From positions 190-64,189 of the forward strand of contig JAYRVH010000013.1 of the NCBI GenBank assembly GCA_041918615.1: a stretch of DNA of 64,000 nt, read 5' to 3'. Numbering within the stretch: the stretch's first letter is position 1; the number at the start of each line of letters is the position of its first letter. Shown here in pieces: positions 5,905 through 57,274 of the stretch. This stretch comes from Acidimicrobiales bacterium (GTDB lineage Bacteria; Actinomycetota; Acidimicrobiia; Acidimicrobiales; DATDAH01). The translations under genes were made by a program, and so were the position numbers. The notes under the pieces were generated by a model that was not told the DNA's origin, searched no databases, and worked only from the letters and a program-made list of their open reading frames with translations.

Positions 5905-7085
5905 GACGACTCCTCTCCTGAGCCCACTGGGCTCCCGTGTCGGGCCGGCCCGCGTCGGCGCACCGAACCGTCGGTCGCGGCGATGGCCGCCACCTCCTCG
6001 GTGAGGTCGATGCCGACCGGGCACCAGGTGATGCAGCGGCCGCACCCGACGCAACCGAGCTCGCCGAACTGATCGGCCCAGGTGGAAAGCTTGTGGGTGA
6101 GCCATTGGCGGTAGCGGGACCGGACGGTCGACCGAACGGGCCCTCCGTGCAGATAGCTGAAGTCGAGCGTGAAGCAGGAGTCCCACCGCTGCCACCGCTC
6201 GGCCACGGCTCCCGTGACGTCGGTGGTGTCCTCGACGGTCCCGCAGAAGCAGGTGGGGCAGACCATCGTGCAGTTGGTGCAGGCGAGGCACCGCGTGGCG
6301 AGGTCGTCCCACCGGGGGTGCTCGAGGTTGCGGGCCAGCAGCGCCGCCACCTCGGCGGCAGGGACATGCCGTCGCTGACCCGCGACCGCCATGGCCGTCG
6401 CATCGGCTGCGGCGTCCTGGTCGGCCCGGGTGGCGGGCTGATGCGGGACCGCGGCGAGGACGGCCGCTCCCTGCTCGCTGCCCACCCGAACACCGAAACG
6501 ATGCTCGCCGCCGTCGAGCAGTTCGACGAGCGCGAGGTCGAACCCGTCGGCCGCGGCGGGGCCGGCGCCCATCGAGTCGCAGAAGCACGTCGGTCCTGCC
6601 TCACCACAGTCCACGGCGACGATGAAGGCGTCGGCCCGCCGGGTTGCGTAGCCCGGGTCGGCGACGGCCCCGTCACGCAGCACCCGGTCCTGGACCGCGA
6701 TGCCACGCAGGTCGCAGGACCGGACGCCGATGAACGCGTTTCGGACCGGGGCCTCGACCGCGTCGTCGATCTCGAAGCCTCCGCCGCCTCGCCTCGCCCG
6801 GAAGACGAGTGATCTGGCGGGGTGCAGAAAGGGCTTCCACGAGGTCGCCGGCGTCGTGAACCCGAACAGCGCGGCGTCTTCCCGGCGCCGCAACCGGTAG
6901 CGCCCCGGGGCCTGCTCGTCACCCCAGCCCGCGGGGAGGTCGGCCACGCCGTCGATCTCGTCGAGCACGACGGCACCGTCGCGTACCGTCGGCCCGATCA
7001 GGGTGCGGCCGTCGCCACGGAGGGCGTCGAGCAGCGCCGCCAGCCCCGCCACGGTGAGTATGCCGTCCATCACGGACGCCAGCAT
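5901..7085 (-). CDS. hyhB: hydrogenase beta subunit: 4Fe-4S dicluster protein
   Basis: [16 protein letters not shown] and [15 protein letters not shown] ferredoxin-type motifs. 394 aa, first gene of the operon. Confidence 0.85.
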
Positions 7086-7183
7086 GGCGCATCCGGCGGC
7101 CCGGGGCGAGTGCCGAAAGTCCCTGGTGCAGCCGGGCCGGTTGGGACACGATCACCGAAGACGATCTGCCGGTAGGAGCGCGA

Positions 7184-7894
7184 GTGCCCGTCATCGAGTT
7201 GGAAGCCGTTGGTCGCCACTACCAGGTCGGTGACAGCCGGGTGACCGCCCTCCGCGACGTGAGCCTGCGGGTCGACCAGGGCGAATTCCTGGTGGTGCTC
7301 GGCCCCTCGGGCTGCGGCAAGACCACGTTGTTGAACCTCATCGGGGCCCTCGACACCCCGAGCGAGGGCGACGTCCGAGTGGCCGGCGCCCGGCTCGCGG
7401 GAGCCAGCCGGAGGGACCTCTTCCGGTTCAGGCGGGAGACGGTGAGCTTCGTCTTCCAGACCTTCAACCTCTTCCCGGCGCTCACGGCCCGCGAGAACGT
7501 CCAGTTCGCCATCGACGTCGCCCGCGGGGCCCGGCCCGGCCCATCGGCTGCCGATGTGCTCGGTCGGGTGGGCCTGGGCGACCGTCTCGACCACTTCAGC
7601 CACCAGCTCTCGGGCGGCGAGCAGCAGCGGGTGGCCATCGCCCGGGCGCTGGCCACGGGGAACCCGGTGCTGTTGGCCGACGAGCCCACCGGCGAGCTCG
7701 ACTTCCGCACCGGCGTCGCCATCCTCGAGTTGCTCCACGAGCAGGCCCACGCCGGCGTGACCGTGGTCATCGTCACCCACAACCGCGAGATCAGCCGCGT
7801 GGCCGACCGGGTCATCGAGCTCTCCAGCGGTTCCGTCGTGGGCGATGGGCCCCCACCGGGGGGCACCGCCGAGATCGCGACCCTCCACTGGTGA
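7184..7894 (+). CDS. ABC transporter ATP-binding protein (MacB/LolD/FtsE-like)
   Basis: Walker A GPSGCGKTT, signature LSGGEQQRV, Walker B LLADEPTGELD. GTG start preceded by AGGAG. Confidence 0.9.
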   Translation: MPVIELEAVGRHYQVGDSRVTALRDVSLRVDQGEFLVVLGPSGCGKTTLLNLIGALDTPSEGDVRVAGARLAGASRRDLFRFRRETVSFVFQTFNLFPALTARENVQFAIDVARGARPGPSAADVLGRVGLGDRLDHFSHQLSGGEQQRVAIARALATGNPVLLADEPTGELDFRTGVAILELLHEQAHAGVTVVIVTHNREISRVADRVIELSSGSVVGDGPPPGGTAEIATLHW

Positions 7895-7919
7895 CCGCCG
7901 ACCTGGCGACGGTGAGACG

Positions 7920-10358
7920 GTGAGCACGGCCCTGCTCTGGCTGCGTTGGTCGTGGCGCGACCTGCGGGCGCGTTGGCTCCAGGTCGCGGCCATCGCCCTG
8001 ATCATCGCCATCGGGTCGGGCACGTACTCGGGGCTCACGAGCGTGTCGGCCTGGCGGCGGACGTCCTACGACGCGAGTTACGACGCCCTCGACATGTACG
8101 ACCTGCGGGTCGACCTGACCACCGGCAGCTACGCCGACACCGCGGCCCTCGTCGACGCCGCCCGTTCGATCCCCCGGGCGCGCGACATCGACCACGTCGA
8201 GGCGCGGCTGCAGGAACCGACCCAGGTGGACGCGTCGACGCCGGACGACCTGGTCCTCGTGCCGGGCCGCCTGGTGGGCGTGGACCTCACCGACGAGGGG
8301 CCACACGTGAGCGGGATCGACACCGTGACCGGGCGCGGCCTGCGGCCCGCGGATGCCGGCCGGAACGTGGTGGTGCTCGACGAGCACGTCGCCAAGCGCC
8401 ACGACCTGGCCGATCGCGGCACGATCCGACTCAGTGGCGACCGCAGGCTCCGCTACGTGGGACGGGGGCTCTCGCCCGAGAGCTTCTTCCCGGTGGACAA
8501 CCGCGGGAGCGTCTTCGCCGACTTCGCCGTCGTCTACACGTCGATCGAGACGGTCCAGCGGCTGACCGGCCACCCGGGGCAGGCCAACGGGCTGGTGCTC
8601 ACCGTCCGCTCCGGCGCCGACGTCGATCGAGTCGAGCGCCAGCTGACCGAGGCGCTCACGGCCGCCCTGGGCGACACCGGGGTGACCATCACCCGCCAGG
8701 AGGACGACCTGGTGCTCCGTCTGCTCTACGACGACATCGAGGGCGACCAGCGCTTCTACAACATCTTCGCCCTCCTCATCCTCGCCGGCGCCACCTTCGC
8801 CGCGTTCAACCTCACCGTCCGCATCGTGGAGGCCCAACGACGCGAGATCGGCATCGGCATGGCCCTCGGCGTCCCGCCGGGCAAGATAGCCGTCCGCCCC
8901 CTGCTGGTCGGGGGCCAGGTGGCCCTCCTCGGTGTCGTGTTCGGCGTGGGCGTGGGGCTGGTGATCGACGCGTTCATGGCCGATCTCCTCAGGGGCTTCT
9001 TCCCGCTGCCCATCTGGGAGTTCGCCTTCCAGCCACGCATCTTCGCCCGGGGTGCGGCACTCGGCCTGCTGCTCCCGCTGGTGGCCACCGCCGTTCCCGT
9101 CTGGCGGGCGGTCCGGGTCGCCCCGGTCGAGGCGATCAGCACCACCCATCGGGCCGCCGGGGGCGGTCTGGCCCCCTTGCTCCGGCGTGTGCCGCTCCCC
9201 GGTTCCAGCATCGGCCAGATGCCGTTCCGCAACGTGTTGCGCGAGCCTCGTCGGACCCTGCTGACCGCGCTGGGGATCGCGGCGGCCATCTGCACGCTCG
9301 TCGGCGTGATCGGCATGATCGACTCGTTCCTCGCCACCGTCGACGCCGGTGACAGCGAGATCGTCGGGGCCACGCCCGACCGGCTGACCCTCGACCTCGA
9401 GGGATTCGCCCTGAGCTCCTCCGAGGAGACGCAGTCGATCATCACCTCGCCCCTCCTCCGAGCGGCGGAGCCCGGGCTCACGCTGGGCGGGACGCTCGAG
9501 CCCGGCACCGAGGACGAGATCGACGTCCTGCTCTCGGCCGTCGACCTGCACAGCGACCTGTGGACACCCACGGCCACCGATGGACGGCTCCGCACCGACG
9601 AGCCTGGCCTCGTGGTGTCCCGAAAGGCGGCTGACGACCTCGGCGTGGGGGTCGGCGACACGGTGGTGCTGCGCCATCCACTGCGGGACGGGATCAGCTA
9701 CCGCCTCGTCGAGACCGAGCTGCCGGTCATCGCAATCCACCCCAACCCGTACCGGTTCATCACCTACATCGACATCCGCTGGGCCTCGCTGTTCGACCTG
9801 GAGGGCATCGCGAACACCATCAGGGTCGCACCGGCCGAGGGCACCAGCGTCGAGGACGTCCAGCGCGCCTTCTTCGGCCGGCCCGGGGTCGCGTCCGTCC
9901 AGCCCGTTTCCGAACTGGCCGACGGGGTCCGCGACCAGATCGACGAGGTGCTCGGCATCTTCGACGTGATCCAGGGTGCGGTCCTGCTCATGGCCCTGCT
10001 CATCGCCTTCAACTCGACCTCGATCAACATGGACGAGCGGGCGCGGGAGAATGCCACCCTGTTCGCGTTCGGGCTTCCCGTGCACCGGGCGGTGATCGTG
10101 GCGGTGACCGAGAGCGTGGTGATCGGCCTCATCGGCACGTTGGGGGGCGTGCTCGCCGGTCGGCTGCTCCTCGAATGGCTGATCCGCGTGATCGTGCCCG
10201 ACTCGCTGCCCGACATCGGGGTCGAGGTGTTCCTCTCGGGGCGGACGGTCGCCACCGCGGTCGTCCTCGGGGTGTTCGCCGTGGCCGTCGCCCCCCTTCT
10301 CACGGTGCGACGCCTGCGCCGGATGGACATCCCCTCGACGCTCCGGGTCATGGAATGA
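7920..10358 (+). CDS. ABC transporter permease with two FtsX-type modules (MacB-like)
   Basis: GTG at 7920 gives VSTALLWLRWSWRDLRARWLQVAAIALIIAIGSG... Two 4-TM FtsX-like blocks are separated by large extracytoplasmic regions. Starts 25 nt after the ATPase stop. Confidence 0.85.
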   Translation: MSTALLWLRWSWRDLRARWLQVAAIALIIAIGSGTYSGLTSVSAWRRTSYDASYDALDMYDLRVDLTTGSYADTAALVDAARSIPRARDIDHVEARLQEPTQVDASTPDDLVLVPGRLVGVDLTDEGPHVSGIDTVTGRGLRPADAGRNVVVLDEHVAKRHDLADRGTIRLSGDRRLRYVGRGLSPESFFPVDNRGSVFADFAVVYTSIETVQRLTGHPGQANGLVLTVRSGADVDRVERQLTEALTAALGDTGVTITRQEDDLVLRLLYDDIEGDQRFYNIFALLILAGATFAAFNLTVRIVEAQRREIGIGMALGVPPGKIAVRPLLVGGQVALLGVVFGVGVGLVIDAFMADLLRGFFPLPIWEFAFQPRIFARGAALGLLLPLVATAVPVWRAVRVAPVEAISTTHRAAGGGLAPLLRRVPLPGSSIGQMPFRNVLREPRRTLLTALGIAAAICTLVGVIGMIDSFLATVDAGDSEIVGATPDRLTLDLEGFALSSSEETQSIITSPLLRAAEPGLTLGGTLEPGTEDEIDVLLSAVDLHSDLWTPTATDGRLRTDEPGLVVSRKAADDLGVGVGDTVVLRHPLRDGISYRLVETELPVIAIHPNPYRFITYIDIRWASLFDLEGIANTIRVAPAEGTSVEDVQRAFFGRPGVASVQPVSELADGVRDQIDEVLGIFDVIQGAVLLMALLIAFNSTSINMDERARENATLFAFGLPVHRAVIVAVTESVVIGLIGTLGGVLAGRLLLEWLIRVIVPDSLPDIGVEVFLSGRTVATAVVLGVFAVAVAPLLTVRRLRRMDIPSTLRVME

Positions 10359-10420
10359 GCCCCGCGAGATAGGGTCGAAGGACCCGTGTCAGCCGCGCCC
10401 CAGAGTGTCACACTCGCCCC

Positions 10421-11830
10421 ATGACCGCTCCGATGCCGCCAGGCCCGCCATCGGGCCCACCGTCGTTCCCCCCGCCAGGGGGACCACCAGGAGGGCCGCC
10501 AGGACCCCCGCCGGGACCGCCTTCCGGGCCGAGTGGCCCACCAACGGGTGGCTACGGCTACGGCTACAGCGCCGCCGGTCCGCCTCCCCCGCCTGCTGGA
10601 GGCTCTCGGACCGGCCTGATCGTGGGAATCGCCATCGGGGTCGTGGTCCTGCTCATCGCCGTCACGGTCGGCGTGGTGCTGTTGACGAGCGACGAGGCCG
10701 AGGCGGGCGAGGTCTTCCTCGACCCCACCACCGAGGTCGGCCGTGACCCGTTCAGCGACAGCGTGGCCAACCCGAACGTGCGACCGATCTCGGGACAGAG
10801 CAACACCGGCACCTCGGCCGGCGGCCGGCTCGACATCACCAGTGCGCCAGGCTCCCAGCCCGGGCTGTATGGCGGCACCCAGAACCAGGCCCAGTGCGAC
10901 CGCCGACAGCTCATCGACTTCCTCCAGGCGAATCCGGCGAAGGGCCGCGCCTGGGCCGGCGTGCAGGGCATCAACCCCTCCCAGATCGAGGACTACATCC
11001 TCGGGCTCACGTCGATGCAGCTCCGGTCCGACACCCGGGTCACCAACCACGGCTTCCGCAACGGCCGGGCCACCGAGTACCAGACGGTGCTCCAGGCAGG
11101 CACCGCCGTCCTGGTCGACCGACAGGGCATCCCGCGCGCCCGGTGCGCGTGCGGCAACCCGCTCACCCCACCACGCGCCGTCCGCACCGCCCCCAGGTTC
11201 CGGGGCACGCGGTGGACCGGATTCACCCCGAGCAACCTCCAGGTCATCGTCGTCCAGACGACGATCAACATCTTCGTGATCATCGACATCGACACCGGCG
11301 ACCTGTTCACTCGACCGCCGGGGACCAACGGCAACGACGACGAGCCCTACGACGGCGGCGGACCGCCGACCACCACCCCGCCGATCACCACTCCCCCCGA
11401 CAGCTTCCCGCCCGACACCTTCCCGCCCGAGACGATCGCGCCGCCCGACGACCTCGGCGGCGCCAACGACGTGGACATCACGCTGAGCTGGTCCGGCAAC
11501 GACGACCTCGACCTCCACGTGATCGAGCCGAGCGGCGAGGAGCTCTCGTTCTCGTCCACCACCACCTCGACCGGTGGGACCCTGGTGGGCGGAGACGACA
11601 TCCCCTCCTGCGAGGACTCGGGCGGCCACTCCGAGAACGCCTACTGGGGCCCCGGCGCCGCGACGCCGGGCGAGTATCAGGTCTACGTCCGCAACTTCGG
11701 CGCCTGCGACGACGACGGCGCCTCCTTCTCGCTCGACATCTCGGTGAACGGTGAGTCGGTGGGCGGCGACAGCGGCACCCTGACGCCGGGGACCGACTCG
11801 GGGACCGTGACCGTCACGGTCCCCGACTGA
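10421..11830 (+). CDS. single-pass membrane protein: Pro/Gly-rich cytoplasmic tail, Cys-motif ectodomain (DUF6777-like), C-terminal YfaP/DUF2135-like domain
   Basis: N-terminal (GPP)-rich ~60 aa and TM segment LIVGIAIGVVVLLIAVTVGVVLL. Conserved block LYGGTQNQAQCD...RARCACGNPL. C-terminal block DLDLHVIEPSGEELSF...GEYQVYVRNFG. Domain names are from memory. Confidence 0.8.
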   Translation: MTAPMPPGPPSGPPSFPPPGGPPGGPPGPPPGPPSGPSGPPTGGYGYGYSAAGPPPPPAGGSRTGLIVGIAIGVVVLLIAVTVGVVLLTSDEAEAGEVFLDPTTEVGRDPFSDSVANPNVRPISGQSNTGTSAGGRLDITSAPGSQPGLYGGTQNQAQCDRRQLIDFLQANPAKGRAWAGVQGINPSQIEDYILGLTSMQLRSDTRVTNHGFRNGRATEYQTVLQAGTAVLVDRQGIPRARCACGNPLTPPRAVRTAPRFRGTRWTGFTPSNLQVIVVQTTINIFVIIDIDTGDLFTRPPGTNGNDDEPYDGGGPPTTTPPITTPPDSFPPDTFPPETIAPPDDLGGANDVDITLSWSGNDDLDLHVIEPSGEELSFSSTTTSTGGTLVGGDDIPSCEDSGGHSENAYWGPGAATPGEYQVYVRNFGACDDDGASFSLDISVNGESVGGDSGTLTPGTDSGTVTVTVPD

Positions 11831-11842
11831 GGCGGGGCGAAC

Positions 11843-13015
11843 ATGGCCGAGAAGACCGACACCCCCGCCGAATCGGTCGACTTGGCGCTGCCGGGGCTCG
11901 TCGGGGCCACACGCATCGCCGAGGGCCCGTTCACCGTCGTCTACCGGGCGACCCAACCGGCGTTCGGACGCCCGGTGGCGGTGACGGTGATCACCGCCGA
12001 CCTCGACGACGAGGCCCGCGCCCGCTTCGAGGAGGAGTGCCGGTCCGCGGGCACCCTGTCAGAGCATCCCGGCATCGTGTCGCTGCACGATGCCGGGATC
12101 GGCGACGACGGTCGGCCGTACCTGGTCATGTCCTTCCTCCCCGACGGCTCGCTGGCCGACCTCCTCGAGCGACGCGGCGCGTTCGGTTGGGAGGAAGCCG
12201 TGCGGATCGGCCTGCACCTCACCAACGCCCTCGCGGCCGCCCACCGATCGGGCGTCATCCACGGCGACCTGCGGCCGGGAACGGTGATGATGGCGGCCGA
12301 CGGCACGCCACTCCTCGCCGAGTTCGGGGTCGCCCGGGTGGTGGGCCACCAGGCCGTGCGAGCGGCTCGCACCTCGCGATCGGTCGTGGGCACCGCCCCC
12401 GAGGTCATCGACGGCGCCGCGCCCTCGGTGGCCGCCGACATCTACTCGATAGGCGCCATCGCCCATGAGCTGATCACGGGTCAGCCGCCGTACACGGTCG
12501 ACCAGTCGGATTCCCTCGAGAACGTCATCCGTCGCGTCACGAGTGAGCCACCGATCGACCTCCGCGCCACCGACACCCCCGACGACGTCGCCGCGCTCGT
12601 GGCCCGCACGATGTCGCGGAACCCGGCCGATCGCCCCGTCTCGGCGGCGACGCTCGGTCGCGACCTCCACGACCTGTGTCGAGCCCATCTCCTGGACCTG
12701 ACCGACGGCCGCCGATGGCCCGAGGCAGCGCCCACCCGCGTGGACGAGCCGCCGACCGCACCTGCGCCGGTCCTGGTGGCCGAGACCGCAGCACCGGCCG
12801 CACCCGCAGCGCCCTACGTCCCGACCCACCGTGTGCCGTGGACCGGCATGCCGGCGTGGTCGTCGTCGGATCCCGGCCCCCAACCGGTCGCCAACCTCGA
12901 CCCCGACCTCGACGTGGCGGTCCTCGAGTGGTCGGGCGACTGGGCACGGGTCCGGTGCTCCAACGACTGGGAGGCATGGGTCGACGGGCGCCAACTCGTT
13001 CCCGTGTGGCAGTGA
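11843..13015 (+). CDS. Ser/Thr-protein-kinase-fold protein with degenerate catalytic motifs (predicted pseudokinase) and C-terminal SH3-like domain
   Basis: The Hanks fold is recognisable (APE: GTAPEV; DIYSIGAI; NPADRP). However VAxK is VAVTV, HRDLKPxN is HGDLRPGT and DFG is EFG. The tail GDWARVRCSNDWEAWVDGRQLV resembles bacterial SH3. Confidence 0.85.
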   Translation: MAEKTDTPAESVDLALPGLVGATRIAEGPFTVVYRATQPAFGRPVAVTVITADLDDEARARFEEECRSAGTLSEHPGIVSLHDAGIGDDGRPYLVMSFLPDGSLADLLERRGAFGWEEAVRIGLHLTNALAAAHRSGVIHGDLRPGTVMMAADGTPLLAEFGVARVVGHQAVRAARTSRSVVGTAPEVIDGAAPSVAADIYSIGAIAHELITGQPPYTVDQSDSLENVIRRVTSEPPIDLRATDTPDDVAALVARTMSRNPADRPVSAATLGRDLHDLCRAHLLDLTDGRRWPEAAPTRVDEPPTAPAPVLVAETAAPAAPAAPYVPTHRVPWTGMPAWSSSDPGPQPVANLDPDLDVAVLEWSGDWARVRCSNDWEAWVDGRQLVPVWQ

Positions 13016-13059
13016 CCGCCGGGTGGCCATGACGGTTGCGTCCTCGTTCCGATGCGCCT

Positions 13060-13851
13060 ATGATTTCCGACGTGCCTTCGGAAATCGTCGCTCCATCGCC
13101 ATCGCCGTCGACTGACCGACGAACACGCAAGCGCGACGCACGACGCGACCACCTCCTCGACTTGGCGCTCGAGCTGAGCGACCGGGCCGGCGTCGGCGGC
13201 GTGACGATGGCCGCCCTGGCCGAGGCCGCCGACTACGCGCCCGCATCGCTCTACACGTACTTCGCGTCACGCAGCGCCCTGCTGGCCGCCCTCCAACAGC
13301 GGGCGCTCACGACTCTCGGCGAAGTCACCGACGACGCGCTCGCGGCCTGGGAAGCCGCCCTCGAAGCCCGCACCGGACGAGAGGCACCTCCGGTTGCGGC
13401 ACTGGCCCGGCTCTGGGTGTTCTCCGACCTCTTCCTCGCCGCCCCACACCACCACCCACGTGAGTTCCGCCTCCAACAGCAACTGCTGGTCACCGCCAAC
13501 ACCCAGGAGGCCGCCGACGCGGCCACGGTCGTCCCGGCGGCCATGGGCGTGCTCGACCTGCCGAGACGGCTGCTCGCCGACGCCACCGCGCAGGGCGCGC
13601 TCGAGCCGCACCGACCCGCCGCCGACCCCATCGACCATCCCCTCGACGGCGACCTGCTCCGCACACTCGCCTGGGTGTCGGCACTCAATGGCGGGCTCCT
13701 CCTCGATGCACTCGGCACGGGCGTGCCCACCACGGGTGCCGACCTCGGTGCCGAGCTCACCGAATCGCTCCTCCTCGGTTGGGGTGCGGCACCGGACCAC
13801 CTCATCATGGCCCGCGGGCGCTCGCTCGGCTGGGTCGCCGAACACACCTGA
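13060..13851 (+). CDS. TetR/AcrR-family transcriptional regulator
   Basis: HTH region GVGGVTMAALAEAADYAPASLYTYFASRSALL. ATG 13060; a TTG at 13036 is also possible. Confidence 0.8.
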   Translation: MISDVPSEIVAPSPSPSTDRRTRKRDARRDHLLDLALELSDRAGVGGVTMAALAEAADYAPASLYTYFASRSALLAALQQRALTTLGEVTDDALAAWEAALEARTGREAPPVAALARLWVFSDLFLAAPHHHPREFRLQQQLLVTANTQEAADAATVVPAAMGVLDLPRRLLADATAQGALEPHRPAADPIDHPLDGDLLRTLAWVSALNGGLLLDALGTGVPTTGADLGAELTESLLLGWGAAPDHLIMARGRSLGWVAEHT

Positions 13852-13865
13852 CCCCGAAAGGACCC

Positions 13866-14498
13866 ATGCCCCTCTTCATCACGCTCCCGCTCGCCTTCGC
13901 CACCGGCTGGCTGCTGTGGACGCTCGGCGAGTACCTGCTGCACCGCTTCGCCATGCACCACCTGCACGGCAAGGGCATCATGAGCCGCGAGCACCTCGAG
14001 CACCACGTGCACTCGACGTGGAGCTTCTCGTACACCCACCTGTTGAGCTGGGCCGGCATGCTGCTCGTCGGTGCCGTGGTGTGGATGCCCCTGTTCTGGT
14101 GGCTGGCCACCCCGCTCGTCGGGGTCGCCGTGGCGACAGGCTGGGCCCTCGGCTACTTCTTCTACGAGTACCAGCACGCCATGGCGCACCTGCGCCCGCC
14201 GTCAGCCACCTACTCGCGGTGGGTCCGCACCCACCACTTCCACCACCACTTCGGCCACCCGATGGCCAACCACGGCGTCAGCGTGCCCTGGTGGGACCAC
14301 GCCTTCGGCACCTTCGAACAACCCGACCGGGTCCGGGTGCCCCGGCGCCTCGCCCTGCCCTGGATGGTGGACGGCCGAAACGAGCTCCGGGCCGAGTTCA
14401 CCGACGACTACGTCCTGGTGGGTCGAGCCACGACCGACGACCGCACGGCCGCACTCGATCGCGCCCGGGCGTTCGCCTCCACCGCCCCCGCCGACTGA
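13866..14498 (+). CDS. fatty acid hydroxylase / sterol desaturase-family membrane protein
   Basis: His boxes HRFAMHH, HLEHHVH and HHFHHHFGH, with TM segments. ATG 13866 (MPLFITLPLAF) lies 14 nt after the TetR stop. Confidence 0.8.
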   Translation: MPLFITLPLAFATGWLLWTLGEYLLHRFAMHHLHGKGIMSREHLEHHVHSTWSFSYTHLLSWAGMLLVGAVVWMPLFWWLATPLVGVAVATGWALGYFFYEYQHAMAHLRPPSATYSRWVRTHHFHHHFGHPMANHGVSVPWWDHAFGTFEQPDRVRVPRRLALPWMVDGRNELRAEFTDDYVLVGRATTDDRTAALDRARAFASTAPAD

Positions 14499-14500
14499 GC

Positions 14501-14548
14501 GCCGACCCTCAGGGGCGCATCTCGGTCGACCCTCAGGGGCGCATCTCG
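14501..14548. repeat. 24-bp tandem duplication (2 copies) containing the 3' end of the acyl-CoA dehydrogenase gene
   Basis: ccgaccctcaggggcgcatctcgg / tcgaccctcaggggcgcatctcgt. 22 of 24 positions are identical (the first and last bases of the unit differ). Copy 2 carries the real stop and last codons (..YEMRP*). Confidence 0.85.
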
Positions 14549-16230
14549 TAGGCGTCGGCGAGCGCGAGCACGTGCTCCCGCCACACCTGCTCGTAGCGCT
14601 CGGCGTCCACGACGGGCTTGGCGATCATCGCCAGGCAGAGGTCCTGCTGGGCCTGGGTGCTGCTCGGCTTGCCGTGGAGCTGCACCGCGAACCGTGAGAC
14701 GTCGCGCACGAAGACGTCGAAGATCTGGTCGACGAGGGAATCCTCGATGCCGTAGATCGCCGCGTTCTCGAGGACCAACTGCGCGTAGACCACCAGGGTG
14801 AAGATCTCGCCCACCGCCAGCAGGAAGTCGACGTCGCGGGACTGCTCGTCGCCGGGCGGCGCCTCGGCGAGCAGGTGTGCGAACACCTCGGCCTGCTCAC
14901 GGAACACCACCACGTTGGGCAGGTCGACACCCGAGAAGGCCGCCTGCCAGTCGCCGAACCGGACCTTGCCCAGGCCTCCGGTGGGGCCCTGGTCGAACAG
15001 GAAGTCGTCGTTGGCGGCATCGTCGCGTCGGGGAACCGCCGGCACCTCCACCGGATCGAAGAAGTAGTTGACCATGAACTTCACGATCAGCGAGATGTTC
15101 ACGTGCACGGTGCCCTCGAGCTTCGGGAGCGCCCTGATGTCGCGGGCGGCCATCTCGAAGTACATGTCCTTCTCGAAGCCCTTGGCCGCGATCACGTCCC
15201 AGAGGTGGTTGATCACGTCCTCGCCCTGGGTGGTGACCTTCATCTTCACGACGGGGTTGAAGAGGAGGTAGCGGCGGTCCTCGGCCGAGGCCGAACGGAA
15301 GTAGTCAGCGGCCCGAAGGGCCACGAGCTTCATGGCCACCAGCCGCGAGTAGGCGTCGGTGAAGAGCTGGCGGACGTGGGCGAAGTCGGTGACCGCGTGC
15401 CCGTACAGGATGCGGTTCGCGGCATGGGTGATCGCCTCGTAGAACGCGTGCGTGCAGATGCCGATCGAGGCCCAGCCCAGGTTGTACTTGCCGATGTTGA
15501 CCGTGTTGAGCCCGGCGTTCCACGCGTCGCCGCCCACCGCGATGATGTCGGCATCGGTGACCGGGTAGTCGTGCAGGGCGAACTCGGAGACGTAGTTCTG
15601 GCTGTGCACCACGTTCTTCACGAGCTCGTAGGCCTCGTGCTGGGAGCTGACCGCGAAGGCCACCGGGTTGCCGTCGGGCAGCTTGCCGAACACCGAGACC
15701 AGCGCGGCCTTGTTGCCGTTGCCGATGTAGTACTTCGATCCGCTCGCACGGTACGTGCCGTCGTCCTGGGGCGTGAGCACCATGTCGGTGGAGTAGAGGT
15801 CGGCGCCGTGAGCCTTCTCGGAGAGGCCGAAGGCGAAGATGCCGCCCTCGGCGAGCAGGGCGGCGGCCCGTTGCCGCAACGGCTCGTTCCCGCTCATCCA
15901 GAGCGGGCCCAGACCGAGCACCGTCACCTGCCACGTGTACCAGTACTGCAGTCCGTAGAACCCCAGGATCTCGGCGAACTCGCAGATGCGCCAGGTGTCC
16001 CACCGGCTTTCCTCGGCGCCGAGGCCCGCGGGCGTGCACATGGTGGCGAAGATGCCCTCGTCAGCCACGAAGTCGAGGAACTCTGCGTACCAGACAGCCG
16101 CGTGGTCGTCGTCCTTCAGCTTGGCTTTGCCTCGTTGCTCGAAGAACTCGACCGTCCGTTGCATCACCTCGCGCGATCGCTCGTCGGGGTACGCGCGGTC
16201 GAGCTTGTTCGGGTGCAGCAGGATCGTCAT
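14533..16230 (-). CDS. acyl-CoA dehydrogenase-family protein (long form, ~565 aa)
   Basis: Internal ATG at 16230 (MTILLHPNKLDRAYPDE...). ACAD-like blocks FAFGLSEKAHGADLYS, KYYIGNGN, GWASIGICTHAF. The upstream extension in the track ORF is junk. Confidence 0.75.
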   Translation of the reverse strand: MTILLHPNKLDRAYPDERSREVMQRTVEFFEQRGKAKLKDDDHAAVWYAEFLDFVADEGIFATMCTPAGLGAEESRWDTWRICEFAEILGFYGLQYWYTWQVTVLGLGPLWMSGNEPLRQRAAALLAEGGIFAFGLSEKAHGADLYSTDMVLTPQDDGTYRASGSKYYIGNGNKAALVSVFGKLPDGNPVAFAVSSQHEAYELVKNVVHSQNYVSEFALHDYPVTDADIIAVGGDAWNAGLNTVNIGKYNLGWASIGICTHAFYEAITHAANRILYGHAVTDFAHVRQLFTDAYSRLVAMKLVALRAADYFRSASAEDRRYLLFNPVVKMKVTTQGEDVINHLWDVIAAKGFEKDMYFEMAARDIRALPKLEGTVHVNISLIVKFMVNYFFDPVEVPAVPRRDDAANDDFLFDQGPTGGLGKVRFGDWQAAFSGVDLPNVVVFREQAEVFAHLLAEAPPGDEQSRDVDFLLAVGEIFTLVVYAQLVLENAAIYGIEDSLVDQIFDVFVRDVSRFAVQLHGKPSSTQAQQDLCLAMIAKPVVDAERYEQVWREHVLALADAYEMRP

Positions 16231-47749: not shown

Positions 47750-49012
47750 TCAGAAGTCGCCGGAGGTGTCCGGCGGGGCCTCGGTGGCTGGTGGGACGGT
47801 GTCACCCGGGATCGTGTCACCCGGGATCGTGTCACCAGGGATCGTGTCGCCCGGGATCGTGGTGTCGCCGCCGGGGATGGTGGTGCTGGTACTGCAGGCC
47901 GGGGCGCCCGTCAGGTCGGTGCCGTCGGTCACGCACGCGGTGGTCGTGGTGGTCGACGGGTCATCGGTGACGCCCATGCCGCCGCTCCCGGCTTCGACGG
48001 GTGCGAGGACGCCGGTCACGATGTCCACTGCGTCGAAGGTCTCGACGGGCTGGGCGGCCGGCTCGACCACCTGGAACGGGAAGATGCTTCCGACGAGGTC
48101 GTCGATGACCTGCCAGGGCGGCCTGGTGACGATGGGGTCGACCAGCACCGCACAGAAGATCGGCGGCAGGAATGGTGGGCAGTTGGGCGCGACCACCGGC
48201 GGGGGGGCCGTCGGCGGGACCGCCGTGGTGGAGGTCGTCGAGGTCGATGTCGTCGAGGTCGACGTGGACGTCGAAGAAGTCGAGGTGGACGTGGAGGTGG
48301 ACGTCGAGGTGGACGTCGAGGTGGACGTCGAGGTCGACGTCGAGGTCGACGTCGTCGTCGGCACCTGCACGCCCGGCGGCGGCCGGTAGGAGCTCGGCGG
48401 CAGGAGCGGGTTCCCGCAGGCGCACCGGGCGCGGGGCACGCCCTGGGCGTCGATCAGCACGGCCGTGCCCCGCTGGAGGAGCGCCAGGAAGGGGACGGCC
48501 TGGCCGTCCTGGTAACCGTGGTTGGTCACCAGGGTGTCCTGGGTCAGGAGCAGGGGCGTGAGGCCGTTGATGTAGTCGGGGATCTGGGCCGGGTCGATGC
48601 CCTGCACCTCGGCCCACGCGGCCCCCTTGTCGGTGTCCGAGGTGAGGAAGTCGATCAGCTGCTGCTTGTCGCACTGGGTCTGGTTCTCGGTGCCCCCGTA
48701 CAGGCCGACCGTGTCGCCGGCGACGGCCACGGGCTGGGCAACCGTTGCGGGCGCTGTGGTGGCGGGCTGGCCCCGCTTGTTGCCCGTCGTCGTGGCGGGC
48801 ACGCCGTTCTCCGCGAAGGACTCCACGGCATCACTGGGAAGGGTCGCCACCGAGTCGGTGAAGGGGGACGGCCCGTTGTCGCTGATGGACTGGGCCTCGA
48901 AGAAGGGGATCTCGGCGTTCTCGTCCCCGCCGCTGCTGCAGGCAGCCAGCGTGGCGACCAGCGTGAAGGCGAGGAAGACGATGGCAGATGTGCGGGCGAT
49001 GCTTGTGCGCAT
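47750..49012 (-). CDS. lipoprotein paralogue of the 10421 Cys-motif (DUF6777-like) protein, with (ST)n and TIPGD repeats
   Basis: Lipobox LAAC. LYGGTENQTQCDKQQLIDFL...RARCACGNPL is about two-thirds identical by eye to residues of the 10421 protein. Confidence 0.8.
   Translation of the reverse strand: MRTSIARTSAIVFLAFTLVATLAACSSGGDENAEIPFFEAQSISDNGPSPFTDSVATLPSDAVESFAENGVPATTTGNKRGQPATTAPATVAQPVAVAGDTVGLYGGTENQTQCDKQQLIDFLTSDTDKGAAWAEVQGIDPAQIPDYINGLTPLLLTQDTLVTNHGYQDGQAVPFLALLQRGTAVLIDAQGVPRARCACGNPLLPPSSYRPPPGVQVPTTTSTSTSTSTSTSTSTSTSTSTSTSTSSTSTSTSTTSTSTTSTTAVPPTAPPPVVAPNCPPFLPPIFCAVLVDPIVTRPPWQVIDDLVGSIFPFQVVEPAAQPVETFDAVDIVTGVLAPVEAGSGGMGVTDDPSTTTTTACVTDGTDLTGAPACSTSTTIPGGDTTIPGDTIPGDTIPGDTIPGDTVPPATEAPPDTSGDF
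47799..47880. repeat. 15-bp in-frame tandem repeat (gtgtcacccgggatc x4 plus a degenerate copy) encoding (TIPGD)n
   Basis: Units at 47799, 47814, 47829 and 47844 with single-base variants. Read directly. Confidence 0.85.
48226..48360. repeat. 6/12-bp microsatellite-like repeat (gtcgaggtggac-type) encoding a ~45-residue (Ser-Thr)n tract
   Basis: Read directly. The protein shows TTTSTSTSTSTSTS...STTSTSTTSTT. Confidence 0.85.
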
Positions 49013-57045: not shown

Positions 57046-57117
57046 GGGCGATTAGCTCAGCGGTAGAGCGCTGCCTTCACACGGCAGAGGTCACTGGTTC
57101 GAAACCAGTATCGCCCA
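57046..57117 (+). tRNA. tRNA-Val: tRNA-Val (anticodon CAC), CCA not encoded
   Basis: Hand-folded cloverleaf: acceptor GGGCGAT/ATCGCCC, D arm GCTC-AGCGGTA-GAGC, anticodon arm CTGCC-TTCACAC-GGCAG, T arm ACTGG-TTCGAAA-CCAGT, discriminator A. 72 nt. Confidence 0.9.
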
Positions 57118-57274
57118 CTCGGAGAACTCCCTTGTCAGGGGCCGGAAAGGCCCGACCGTGCAGTTCCCGCCACCGCCCCCGAAGCCCCGTTTGTCCGCGA
57201 AATGTCCGCGGCGGAGGCCCGCCGGCCCGCTGAGCCGGACCATTTTGTCGCGGCCGTTGGCATGTTGTGTCGAT

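Follow-up and report, generated by a model that had tools for sequence, protein, structure and literature searches.

Bacterial pseudokinases are only now being catalogued, and almost none of the seven families recognised has an assigned function. The catalogue, drawn from RefSeq and UniProt and covering ~300,000 bacterial Ser/Thr kinases, comprises 35 canonical and 7 pseudokinase families, the latter named ActPs1-3, GLW, CP1, DYD and DLHK (O'Boyle et al. 2025; PMC12599244). Here we describe a gene in a 64,000-nucleotide stretch of DNA from an Acidimicrobiales bacterium (assembly GCA_041918615.1, contig JAYRVH010000013.1), hereafter the window, whose product (the window protein) joins a degenerate Hanks-type kinase domain to a C-terminal bacterial SH3 (SH3b) domain and is encoded beside a membrane protein of the DUF6777 family. 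The most likely role of the pseudokinase, in uncultured bacteria related to Microthrix, is that of an adaptor in signalling that does not itself catalyse.

Replacement of the VAIK Lys is seen in each of the seven described families. ActPs1 has lost all three diagnostic residues, frequently has a deleted G-helix and carries a PQQ domain; ActPs2 combines a beta3 Arg, an Asn in the HRD motif and a DFG deletion with large insertions and a transmembrane segment; in ActPs3, which also has a transmembrane segment, all motifs are degraded and the activation loop is deleted. Among the other families are found a GLW motif in place of HRD, a fusion to COG3899, a DYD type with a beta3 Arg and no alphaC Glu, and a proteobacterial helicase fusion (PMC12599244). 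The window protein resembles these families in belonging to a conserved non-canonical subfamily (clade A below) that arose inside an active kinase family, the counterparts being ActPs1 in Act1 and ActPs2 in Act2. It is set apart from ActPs1, ActPs2 and ActPs3, as they are described in print, by a retained HxD Asp, the absence of a beta3 Arg, a full-length activation loop, helices that follow the F-helix in the structural model, and the lack of a transmembrane segment and of PQQ; none of the motifs or domains of GLW, CP1, DYD and DLHK is present. Clade A differs further in mostly keeping the VAIK Lys, in its HG[DE] and [EV]F[GR] motifs and in lacking COG3899 and helicase domains. The term 'SH3' is absent from the main text of the Atlas preprint. 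Compared feature by feature with these published descriptions, the motif pattern, the soluble architecture with a C-terminal SH3b domain and the conserved DUF6777 partner are new, and the group is outside the seven families.

Among individual proteins, MviN and EssB/YukC are bacterial scaffold pseudokinases, MviN being regulated by PknB (PMC12599244). PknB is the closest solved relative in both sequence and structure and shares the actinobacterial Hanks fold; it is, however, an active RD kinase that holds its transmembrane helix and extracellular PASTA domains in one polypeptide, whereas the window protein is soluble, with dead motifs and a C-terminal SH3b domain, and its putative sensor and transmembrane part reside in the separate DUF6777 protein. 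MviN (Rv3910, of ActPs3) is likewise an actinobacterial Hanks pseudokinase and a predicted membrane-proximal scaffold beside an active kinase, with a constrained dimer interface. It has all three motifs degraded, a deleted activation loop and a transmembrane segment and is fused to a flippase, while the window protein has a full-length activation loop, the HxD Asp, an SH3b tail and a DUF6777 partner, and no transmembrane segment. Comparable, too, is EssB/YukC, a protein of bacterial origin that has the kinase fold and whose part in the membrane complex of type VIIb secretion is purely structural; EssB, though, is a highly divergent membrane protein of Firmicutes secretion loci, and no type VII secretion genes lie near the window gene.

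In eukaryotes, dead paralogues are retained as allosteric or scaffolding partners in the pairs HER3-EGFR, KSR-RAF, STRAD-LKB1 and JAK JH2-JH1. These pairs and the Src kinases may serve as analogies, the former for a duplicated kinase that loses catalysis and the latter for a combination of SH3 domain, kinase and Pro-rich ligand. The SH3 domain of the window protein, unlike that of Src, is of the bacterial SH3_3/SH3_4 type and C-terminal to the kinase, and there is no sign of common descent for the arrangement. The case is clean but not surprising in kind. The organisms are uncultured and, beyond 'non-catalytic', the mechanism is one we infer.

Fold and catalytic motifs of the window protein

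The gene and its parts are as follows (window coordinates, strand, feature).

11843..13015, +, pseudokinase gene; ATG start, 390 residues plus stop; kinase-like domain, linear motif, Pro/Ala linker and SH3b
11882..12688, +, kinase-like (pseudokinase) domain, residues 14-282; Pfam match 24-267, PknB alignment 28-275, bilobal secondary structure in the AlphaFold2 (AF2) model
11918..11941, +, degenerate Gly-rich loop AEGPFTVV, residues 26-33; aligned under PknB GFGGMSEV
11984..11986, +, Thr48 codon ACG at the beta3 (VAIK) Lys position; VAVTV against PknB VAVKV (K40)
12260..12283, +, catalytic loop HGDLRPGT, residues 140-147; under PknB HRDVKPAN
12320..12328, +, EFG replacing DFG, residues 160-162; EFR or VFR in other clade-A members
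12686..12727, +, conserved linear motif peculiar to clade A, HLLDLTDGRRWPEA (residues 282-295); in a stretch of low model confidence at the kinase-domain exit
12728..12814, +, Pro/Ala-rich disordered linker, residues 296-324; low identity and variable length among orthologues
12815..13012, +, SH3b domain, residues 325-390 (66 residues), Trp-rich; from AF2, Foldseek and sequence relatives

The open reading frame (ORF) at 11843..13015 has a coding-type composition, with a third-position GC content (GC3) of 0.89 in a window of 71% GC, and ~10 nucleotides 5' of the ATG there is a GAGG sequence that overlaps the preceding gene's stop codon. An earlier note, made from the letters of this DNA, had read the product as a Hanks-type kinase, and this reading stands. 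Pfam matched Pkinase (PF00069; E=5.7e-31, 108 bits against a cut-off of 31.7) and PK_Tyr_Ser-Thr (E=3.9e-25), and the best relative of solved structure was Mycobacterium tuberculosis PknB (E=4.5e-31), with the PknA and PknE kinase domains also found. An AF2 model of the full protein, built on 18 family members, had a mean predicted local distance difference test score (pLDDT) of 85.4 and superposed on PknB and PknA structures in Foldseek with target-normalised TM-scores of 0.84-0.86 (~0.84 for PknB). The profile score above the cut-off together with the bilobal fold places the protein in the Hanks-type superfamily. An NCBIfam scan returned generic kinase models alone, all far under their cut-offs. 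The protein has no transmembrane segment, as the earlier note had also stated; Kyte-Doolittle means over 19 residues reach no more than 1.2, compared with 3.2 in the transmembrane helix of the DUF6777 partner.

Motifs were placed by HMMER alignment to PknB and by an independent MAFFT alignment, and the positions coincided with those read letter by letter in the earlier note, which had itself called for a comparison with PknB. The segment IAEGPFTVV falls under LGFGGMSEV, leaving the Gly-rich loop degenerate, and T48 falls under the beta3 Lys K40. In the catalytic loop Asp142 is kept, and Arg has changed to Gly, Lys to Arg and Asn to Thr; EFG stands under the DFG of PknB. The structural motifs that had been described as retained are invariant in the family alignment, namely the alphaC Glu (E65), APE (186-187), D199-x4-G204 and R264. 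Of the features needed for catalysis, the beta3 Lys, the Lys and Asn of the catalytic loop, the DFG Asp and a GxGxxG loop are missing.

The only Lys of the window protein is K4, in the disordered N-terminus (pLDDT <50). A substitute Lys of the WNK kind was considered and ruled out: Thr follows F30 at the position used by WNK, and the single Lys lies elsewhere. Under the usual operational definition, by which a pseudokinase has lost at least one of the VAIK Lys, HRD Asp and DFG Asp, the protein qualifies with two of the three gone, as had been proposed, and it is predicted from its sequence to be catalytically inactive.

At the exit of the kinase domain the pLDDT drops from 72 to 35 over residues 282-295, and it is below 50 over residues 288-319; on the model, residues 282-295 are probably a disordered region. 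Within it, 'LDLTDGRRWP' is invariant across clade A and the same alignment columns vary in clades B and C (defined below). The segment HLLDLTDGRRWPEA looks like a short linear motif for docking or phosphorylation gained by the pseudokinase lineage.

PADLOC models of the anti-phage system PD-T4-6 match the protein at E=1.4e-52, and it is extremely improbable that the gene is a kinase-based defence system of this type. The matches cover the generic kinase domain only, dozens of PD-T4-6 sub-models match equally and the PknB/Stk1 model of NCBIfam scores similarly; moreover, the catalytic residues are missing, and the context is a conserved, syntenic, chromosomal housekeeping one with no signs of mobile elements. 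The PADLOC matches to PD-T4-6 and mad6 were accordingly rejected as evidence of defence and ascribed to generic kinase-domain homology.

Clade A and its motif-intact paralogue

A search of 5.8 billion proteins returned a tight group of full-length relatives that split into three clades when aligned.

Clade A: the window protein, P0002-P0011, L005-L009 and L019; 62-100% identity to the window protein; Gly loop xxDPFAxV, beta3 VAVKV (VAVTV in the window lineage only), catalytic loop HG[DE]L[RH]P[GE][TA], and [EV]F[GR]
Clade B: P0012-P0017, L004, L010-L014 and L049; 45-52% identity to the window protein; Gly loop GxGGFAVV, VAVKV, HCDLKPxN (non-RD) and DFG
Clade C: P0018 and L015-L018; 42-45% identity to the window protein; Gly loop GRGGFGTV, VAVKV, HRDVKPAN (canonical RD) and DFG

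In length and in C-terminal domain, clades B and C match clade A. Clade A occurs in at least seven uncultured species of Microthrixaceae/Acidimicrobiales, and no fewer than 11 of its clusters, drawn from many metagenomes, have an intact reading frame. Degeneration of the Gly loop, the catalytic loop and DFG is common to 11 clade-A clusters at identities down to 62%. Fixed in the clade are G29P, where the other two clades have Gly, together with K144R/H, N147T/A and D160E/V, so that the DFG Asp is lost throughout, as are the activation-loop Thr positions conserved in B and C and three alphaC-helix Arg, which are R57, R60 and R64 in those clades. Every member carries degenerate motifs, and the degenerate state therefore goes back to the ancestor of clade A and has persisted in at least seven species. 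Individual members have gone further, with Glu for the HxD Asp in L007, L008 and L009 and Val at the DFG position in L006.

Selection was measured as the ratio of nonsynonymous to synonymous substitution (dN/dS) by the method of Nei and Gojobori in close, unsaturated pairs alone; ratios of ~0.3 in deep pairs were discounted, as dS was saturated or compressed at a GC3 near 0.9. The kinase domain gave 0.11-0.19 in close clade-A pairs and 0.07 in a close clade-B pair, and the SH3 domain 0.04-0.2. Identity of the kinase domain to the outgroup C is 0.44 for A against 0.53 for B, which indicates faster change along the A lineage, yet divergence within the clades is now equal (identity 0.72 in A and 0.73 in B, same genomes). 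The pattern of clade A is that of a rapid spell of change after which constraint returned.

In the SH3 domain, identities of 0.69 (A-B), 0.54 (A-C) and 0.58 (B-C) make A and B sisters and C the outgroup. Six clade-A genomes were examined for a second copy (the five listed here and JAYRFK), and in five a clade-B gene was found on another contig.

Genome CAZWMT: clade A L005, clade B L011
Genome CAYYDZ: clade A L006, clade B L012
Genome CAZYPY: clade A L008, clade B L013
Genome JACJWK: clade A L009, clade B L014
Genome JBGAOY: clade A L019, clade B L010

No second copy was detected in clade-C genomes, and tblastn found no second kinase paralogue within the 64-kb window. The DUF6777 partners fall into the same three clades, with identities of 0.79 (A-A), 0.54 (A-B), 0.51 (A-C) and 0.52 (B-C), and from this mirroring it follows that the two-gene module was duplicated as a unit. 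At the level of sequence comparison, clade A is shown to be a paralogue, arisen by module duplication, of the motif-intact, non-RD kinase clade B. Three types of protein, the RD kinase, its non-RD relative and the pseudokinase, thus have one architecture in common, each with its own DUF6777 copy and the latter two in the same genomes. They form a natural series in which to ask what residues are the first to be lost as a kinase turns into a scaffold.

The earlier note had left it to orthologues to decide between a conserved pseudokinase and recent decay. The changes in the Gly loop, catalytic loop and DFG are shared, whereas the beta3 Lys is kept in all ten other clade-A clusters. The change to Thr is a single transversion, AAG to ACG, specific to the species-level lineage of the window. 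Six variants of 97-99% identity all have Thr48, and in two of them recovered with their DNA, L050 and L051, the codon is likewise ACG. These two loci differ from the window gene by dS 0.16-0.17 and dN 0.017-0.018 (omega 0.10-0.12), and the low omega within the Thr48 lineage indicates that purifying selection persisted after the Lys was lost. The window lineage is also alone in having EFG rather than EFR/VFR, Lys48 and Arg162 having been lost together. In L005, L006, L007 and L008 (370-396 residues with 27-32 Arg and unambiguous start codons) the beta3 Lys is the sole Lys of the protein; two Lys are counted in L009, where the first-start ORF overextends (482 residues). That purifying selection continued without the Lys argues that ATP-dependent chemistry is dispensable for function, at least in the window lineage.

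A gene in decay, that is a recently inactivated kinase surviving as a functionless pseudogene with an open frame, would account for a transversion confined to one species-level lineage and for the faster divergence of the clade-A kinase domain from the outgroup. It is very improbable in view of the intact frame in at least 11 clusters from many metagenomes, the dN/dS of 0.10-0.19 where divergence is unsaturated, also in the lineage that had already lost the Lys, and a divergence within clade A equal to that of the active paralogue; in addition, clade A has acquired constraints of its own (the DPFA loop, EFR and LDLTDGRRWP), and its operon position and partner are conserved. The shared degenerate motifs and the dN/dS of 0.10-0.19 together show, as far as sequences can, that the pseudokinase is selectively maintained and is not a case of recent decay.

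A second alternative is an atypical yet active enzyme, which would bind nucleotide and carry out phosphotransfer or another ATP-dependent reaction with non-canonical residues: Glu160 in place of the DFG Asp, Asp142 as the base and Arg replacing Lys. WNK, CASK and POMK are examples of catalysis with non-canonical residues, and the like has been proposed for the DYD and DLHK families. The window protein does keep Asp142 and, in alphaC, Glu65, and where the DFG Asp would stand its residue is still acidic; its orthologues keep the beta3 Lys, the sole Lys in the four with an unambiguous start, and Arg-based ATP binding has been proposed for ActPs2 and DLHK (PMC12599244). Activity is nevertheless unlikely, for the window protein is without the beta3 Lys and has no Lys in or near the fold, its Gly loop contains Pro (Asp-Pro in orthologues), the Mg-binding Asn is Thr or Ala and the catalytic-loop Lys is Arg or His. 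The HxD Asp is Glu in three orthologues and the DFG position is Val in another, as noted above, and the activation-loop Thr residues of clades B and C are gone. The only catalytic residue conserved across the rest of the clade is the Lys, and this is the one lost in the window lineage.

The SH3b domain and the DUF6777 partner

Residues 325-390 are the best-conserved part of the protein (PTHRVPWTGxPAW...LDPDLDVxVLEWSGDWARVRCSNGWEAWVDGRQLVP) and contain six Trp (W333, W339, W363, W367, W376 and W379). The suggestion that the C-terminus is a bacterial SH3 domain was upheld by structure and by sequence. The last 69 residues (322-390) were modelled as five strands with a pLDDT of 94.9, and the top 50 Foldseek matches in the PDB were all SH3 domains, with E values of only 0.015-0.1, as expected for a 69-residue query; they included Lck, Abl, Hck, clostridial SH3b and NlpC-associated SH3b (query-normalised TM-score 0.72). 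Pfam gave no match at E<=10 for the C-terminal domain of the window protein by itself. A filter-free phmmer search of 1.84 billion representatives, however, found 1084 SH3b relatives (E<=1e-3), many of which carry 2-7 copies in tandem, and of 70 sampled among those at E<=1e-14, 50 matched SH3_4 (PF06347) and 49 SH3_3 (PF08239) at E<=1e-3; one tandem relative, L040, scored 33.4 bits against a gathering score of 24.1. The domain is therefore assigned to the SH3 group by transitive homology. No other SH3-like domain was found within the window.

The SH3b module is mobile, being C-terminal to kinases, N-terminal on proteins with four transmembrane segments, in tandem, or a separate protein in Streptomycetaceae. 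Across L024-L045, a ~65-residue SH3b domain stands at the N-terminus of four-transmembrane proteins, behind a Pro-rich linker, and tandem pairs also occur; in L033 the module follows another region. Example ORFs are as follows.

L037, 4960-5862: SH3b ORF
L040, 5986-6828: SH3b ORF
L043, 1540-2355: SH3b ORF

The gene upstream of the pseudokinase encodes the DUF6777 partner (Pfam PF20568, E=5.6e-62, 208.7 bits against a cut-off of 27).

10421..11830, +, DUF6777 single-pass membrane protein, 469 residues; ends 12 nucleotides before the pseudokinase gene
10421..10603, +, Pro-rich N-terminal tail (44% Pro), predicted cytoplasmic; three GPPxGP motifs and GYGYGY
10604..10690, +, transmembrane helix, ~residues 62-90; Kyte-Doolittle 19-residue maximum 3.17 at residue 70
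10844..11323, +, DUF6777 domain, residues 142-301, predicted extracytoplasmic; conserved Cys (QCD..., RCACGNP)
11453..11827, +, C-terminal 'DLDLHVxxPxGEE' domain; present in A, B and C partners
47750-49012, -, second DUF6777 gene of the window; Pfam 1.4e-47, lipoprotein-type signal (…LVATLAACSS)

The topology is predicted from the single transmembrane segment and the Cys pattern. The partners share a layout of a 50-90-residue tail, one transmembrane helix, the DUF6777 domain, a Pro/Thr linker and the C-terminal domain, for which Pfam returned only a sub-threshold DUF2135 match (E=0.19). The tails of kinase-linked partners contain 30-47% Pro, or 18-20% where the first-start ORF overextends. Every A, B and C locus has a DUF6777 gene beside its kinase or pseudokinase gene; in A and B it is the next gene upstream, with the same orientation, and in C the two are divergent. 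The GPPxGP motif was found in the tail of 21/21 DUF6777 proteins linked to an SH3 domain or kinase, those of Streptomyces included, and in 7/393 other ORFs of the same loci. The two unlinked DUF6777 paralogues (window 47750-49012; L014 3459-4556) have neither the Pro-rich tail nor the C-terminal domain, and the window paralogue serves as a natural negative control for the correlation between tail and SH3 domain. This paralogue has a long (ST)n repeat after its DUF6777 domain and no SH3 or kinase neighbour.

Two further observations concern the motif. In L026 2736-11426 (Acidimicrobiales), three DUF6777 genes are interleaved with two genes for SH3-transmembrane proteins, and a GPPxGP tail was confirmed only for that DUF6777 gene which has an SH3 gene as its immediate downstream neighbour. 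The only other ORFs with GPPxGP form one family of multi-transmembrane proteins whose C-terminal Pro-rich tail ends in …TGPPPGPRR and whose genes lie a few kilobases from the SH3-four-transmembrane genes; these loci are closely related and amount to about one independent observation.

L025, 1001-1975, -: multi-transmembrane protein with GPPxGP; homologues in L027, L028, L029, L030, L032 and L034

We consider it probable, with moderate confidence, that this selectively maintained, dead paralogue of an SH3-tailed Hanks kinase is a non-catalytic adaptor docked through its SH3 domain to the DUF6777 partner. A two-gene module of DUF6777 protein and SH3-tailed kinase was duplicated, one copy turning into the pseudokinase and clade B staying intact. 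The pseudokinase would function, with no transfer of phosphate, as that half of a split receptor which lies in the cytoplasm; its SH3b domain would dock on the GPPxGP-bearing Pro-rich tail, and the Cys-containing DUF6777 ectodomain would sense something in the envelope. The dead kinase domain could be a scaffold or an allosteric modulator and might pair, with itself or with the clade-B paralogue, through a back-to-back N-lobe interface of the PknB type. F41 and D83, conserved in all clades, correspond to L33 and D76 of PknB, which we take to be residues of the back-to-back dimer interface and which recur in the names of PDB entries among the matches ('L33D' and 'D76A' PknB mutants). Another conceivable role is that of a substrate or docking platform through the LDLTDGRRWP motif.

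It is also possible, if unlikely, that the protein is an adaptor whose SH3b domain binds another ligand, be it its own linker (in a Src-like autoinhibition), a cell-wall precursor peptide or some other protein, DUF6777 being merely co-regulated. The linker (residues 296-324) is indeed Pro/Ala-rich, SH3b occurs in many architectures with no DUF6777 nearby, e.g. at the N-termini of four-transmembrane proteins (L024-L044), and clade-B modules lie among peptidoglycan genes. Against this, DUF6777 adjacency and the GPPxGP motif are strictly conserved from Microthrixaceae to Streptomyces in all cases of an SH3 domain coupled with a kinase, kinase and partner have co-duplicated with parallel trees, and unlinked DUF6777 paralogues have no tail.

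Several points weigh against an SH3-docked, dead adaptor. Pro-rich tails are common in the membrane proteins of high-GC actinobacteria, and SH3b domains usually bind cell-wall peptides; in the present case the domain could also bind the Pro/Ala linker of the pseudokinase in cis. Docking on the tail is inferred from a correlation among sequences, and only about six independent lineages underlie the 21/21 count for GPPxGP. No Pkinase-DUF6777 fusion appeared in a word-indexed search, in which PF20568 was found as the only domain of proteins of ≤317 residues and the family is probably under-sampled. One clade-A genome, JAYRFK, showed no clade-B copy. As to catalysis, the HxD Asp142 and the alphaC Glu are retained in the window protein, and the lone beta3 Lys of the orthologues suggests that a Lys-Glu bridge or a ligand contact still matters there; these Lys-keeping proteins may still bind nucleotide, and 'dead' is possibly too strong a word for the clade.

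In a wider and rather doubtful proposal, DUF6777 proteins and SH3b-tailed kinases may constitute an unrecognised actinobacterial 'split receptor kinase' in which GPPxGP recruits the kinase and the pseudokinase copy tunes or insulates the pathway of the active paralogue, possibly one related to the cell wall. If true, this would be a prokaryotic counterpart of eukaryotic SH3/PxxP signalling, coupling sensors to cytosolic kinases. No mention of DUF6777 was found in the literature searched, nor relevant work on bacterial SH3 domains, proline-rich segments and kinases, and the association offers a first functional handle on this widespread actinobacterial family, Streptomyces included.

Genomic neighbourhood of the module

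The DUF6777-pseudokinase pair of the window is flanked by an exporter and a regulator.

7184-7894 (ATPase) and 7845-10358 (double FtsX/MacB_PCD permease), +, MacB-type ABC exporter; Pfam and NCBIfam
13036..13851, +, TetR-family regulator, directly downstream of the pseudokinase; Pfam TetR_N 3.2e-10

The MacB exporter is also upstream in L001-L003 and L050, and the TetR gene downstream in L001-L003, with a faint match in L050; in these loci and the window, exporter and regulator flank the pair on the same strand with short gaps. In L006 and L009 the module is preceded by ORFs that match the exporter in size and position alone. L005 has no MacB exporter, and its flanks are beta-helix and glycosyltransferase genes.

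Clade B has other neighbours. A polysaccharide deacetylase gene lies upstream in L004, L010, L012 and L014, joined by an Rpf-like transglycosylase in L004 and L014, and a YkuD L,D-transpeptidase lies downstream in L004, L010, L012, L014 and L049. These peptidoglycan genes hint at a cell-wall-related signal for the family.

In Streptomyces and a Kitasatospora-like contig, separate genes encode, in this order, an FHA-ABC transporter, a small SH3-like protein, a kinase and then, within 2-3 kb, a DUF6777 protein, and the SH3-like gene ends 3-7 nucleotides before the start of the kinase gene (L021) or overlaps it (L048).

L021, 3625-11356: Streptomycetaceae cluster
L048, 289-6867: Streptomycetaceae cluster

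Fusion in Microthrixaceae and adjacency in Streptomycetaceae thus support the link between SH3 domain and kinase across two actinobacterial classes.

In a promoter and terminator scan of 6900-14600, which tells little at 71% GC, nothing resembling a promoter was found, and three weak sites of terminator type did not clearly exceed shuffled sequences. Rfam and tRNA scans found no RNA gene near the locus. Over the whole window, a tRNA-Val (CAC) gene at 57046-57118 (+) was the sole RNA gene that Rfam and ARAGORN detected.

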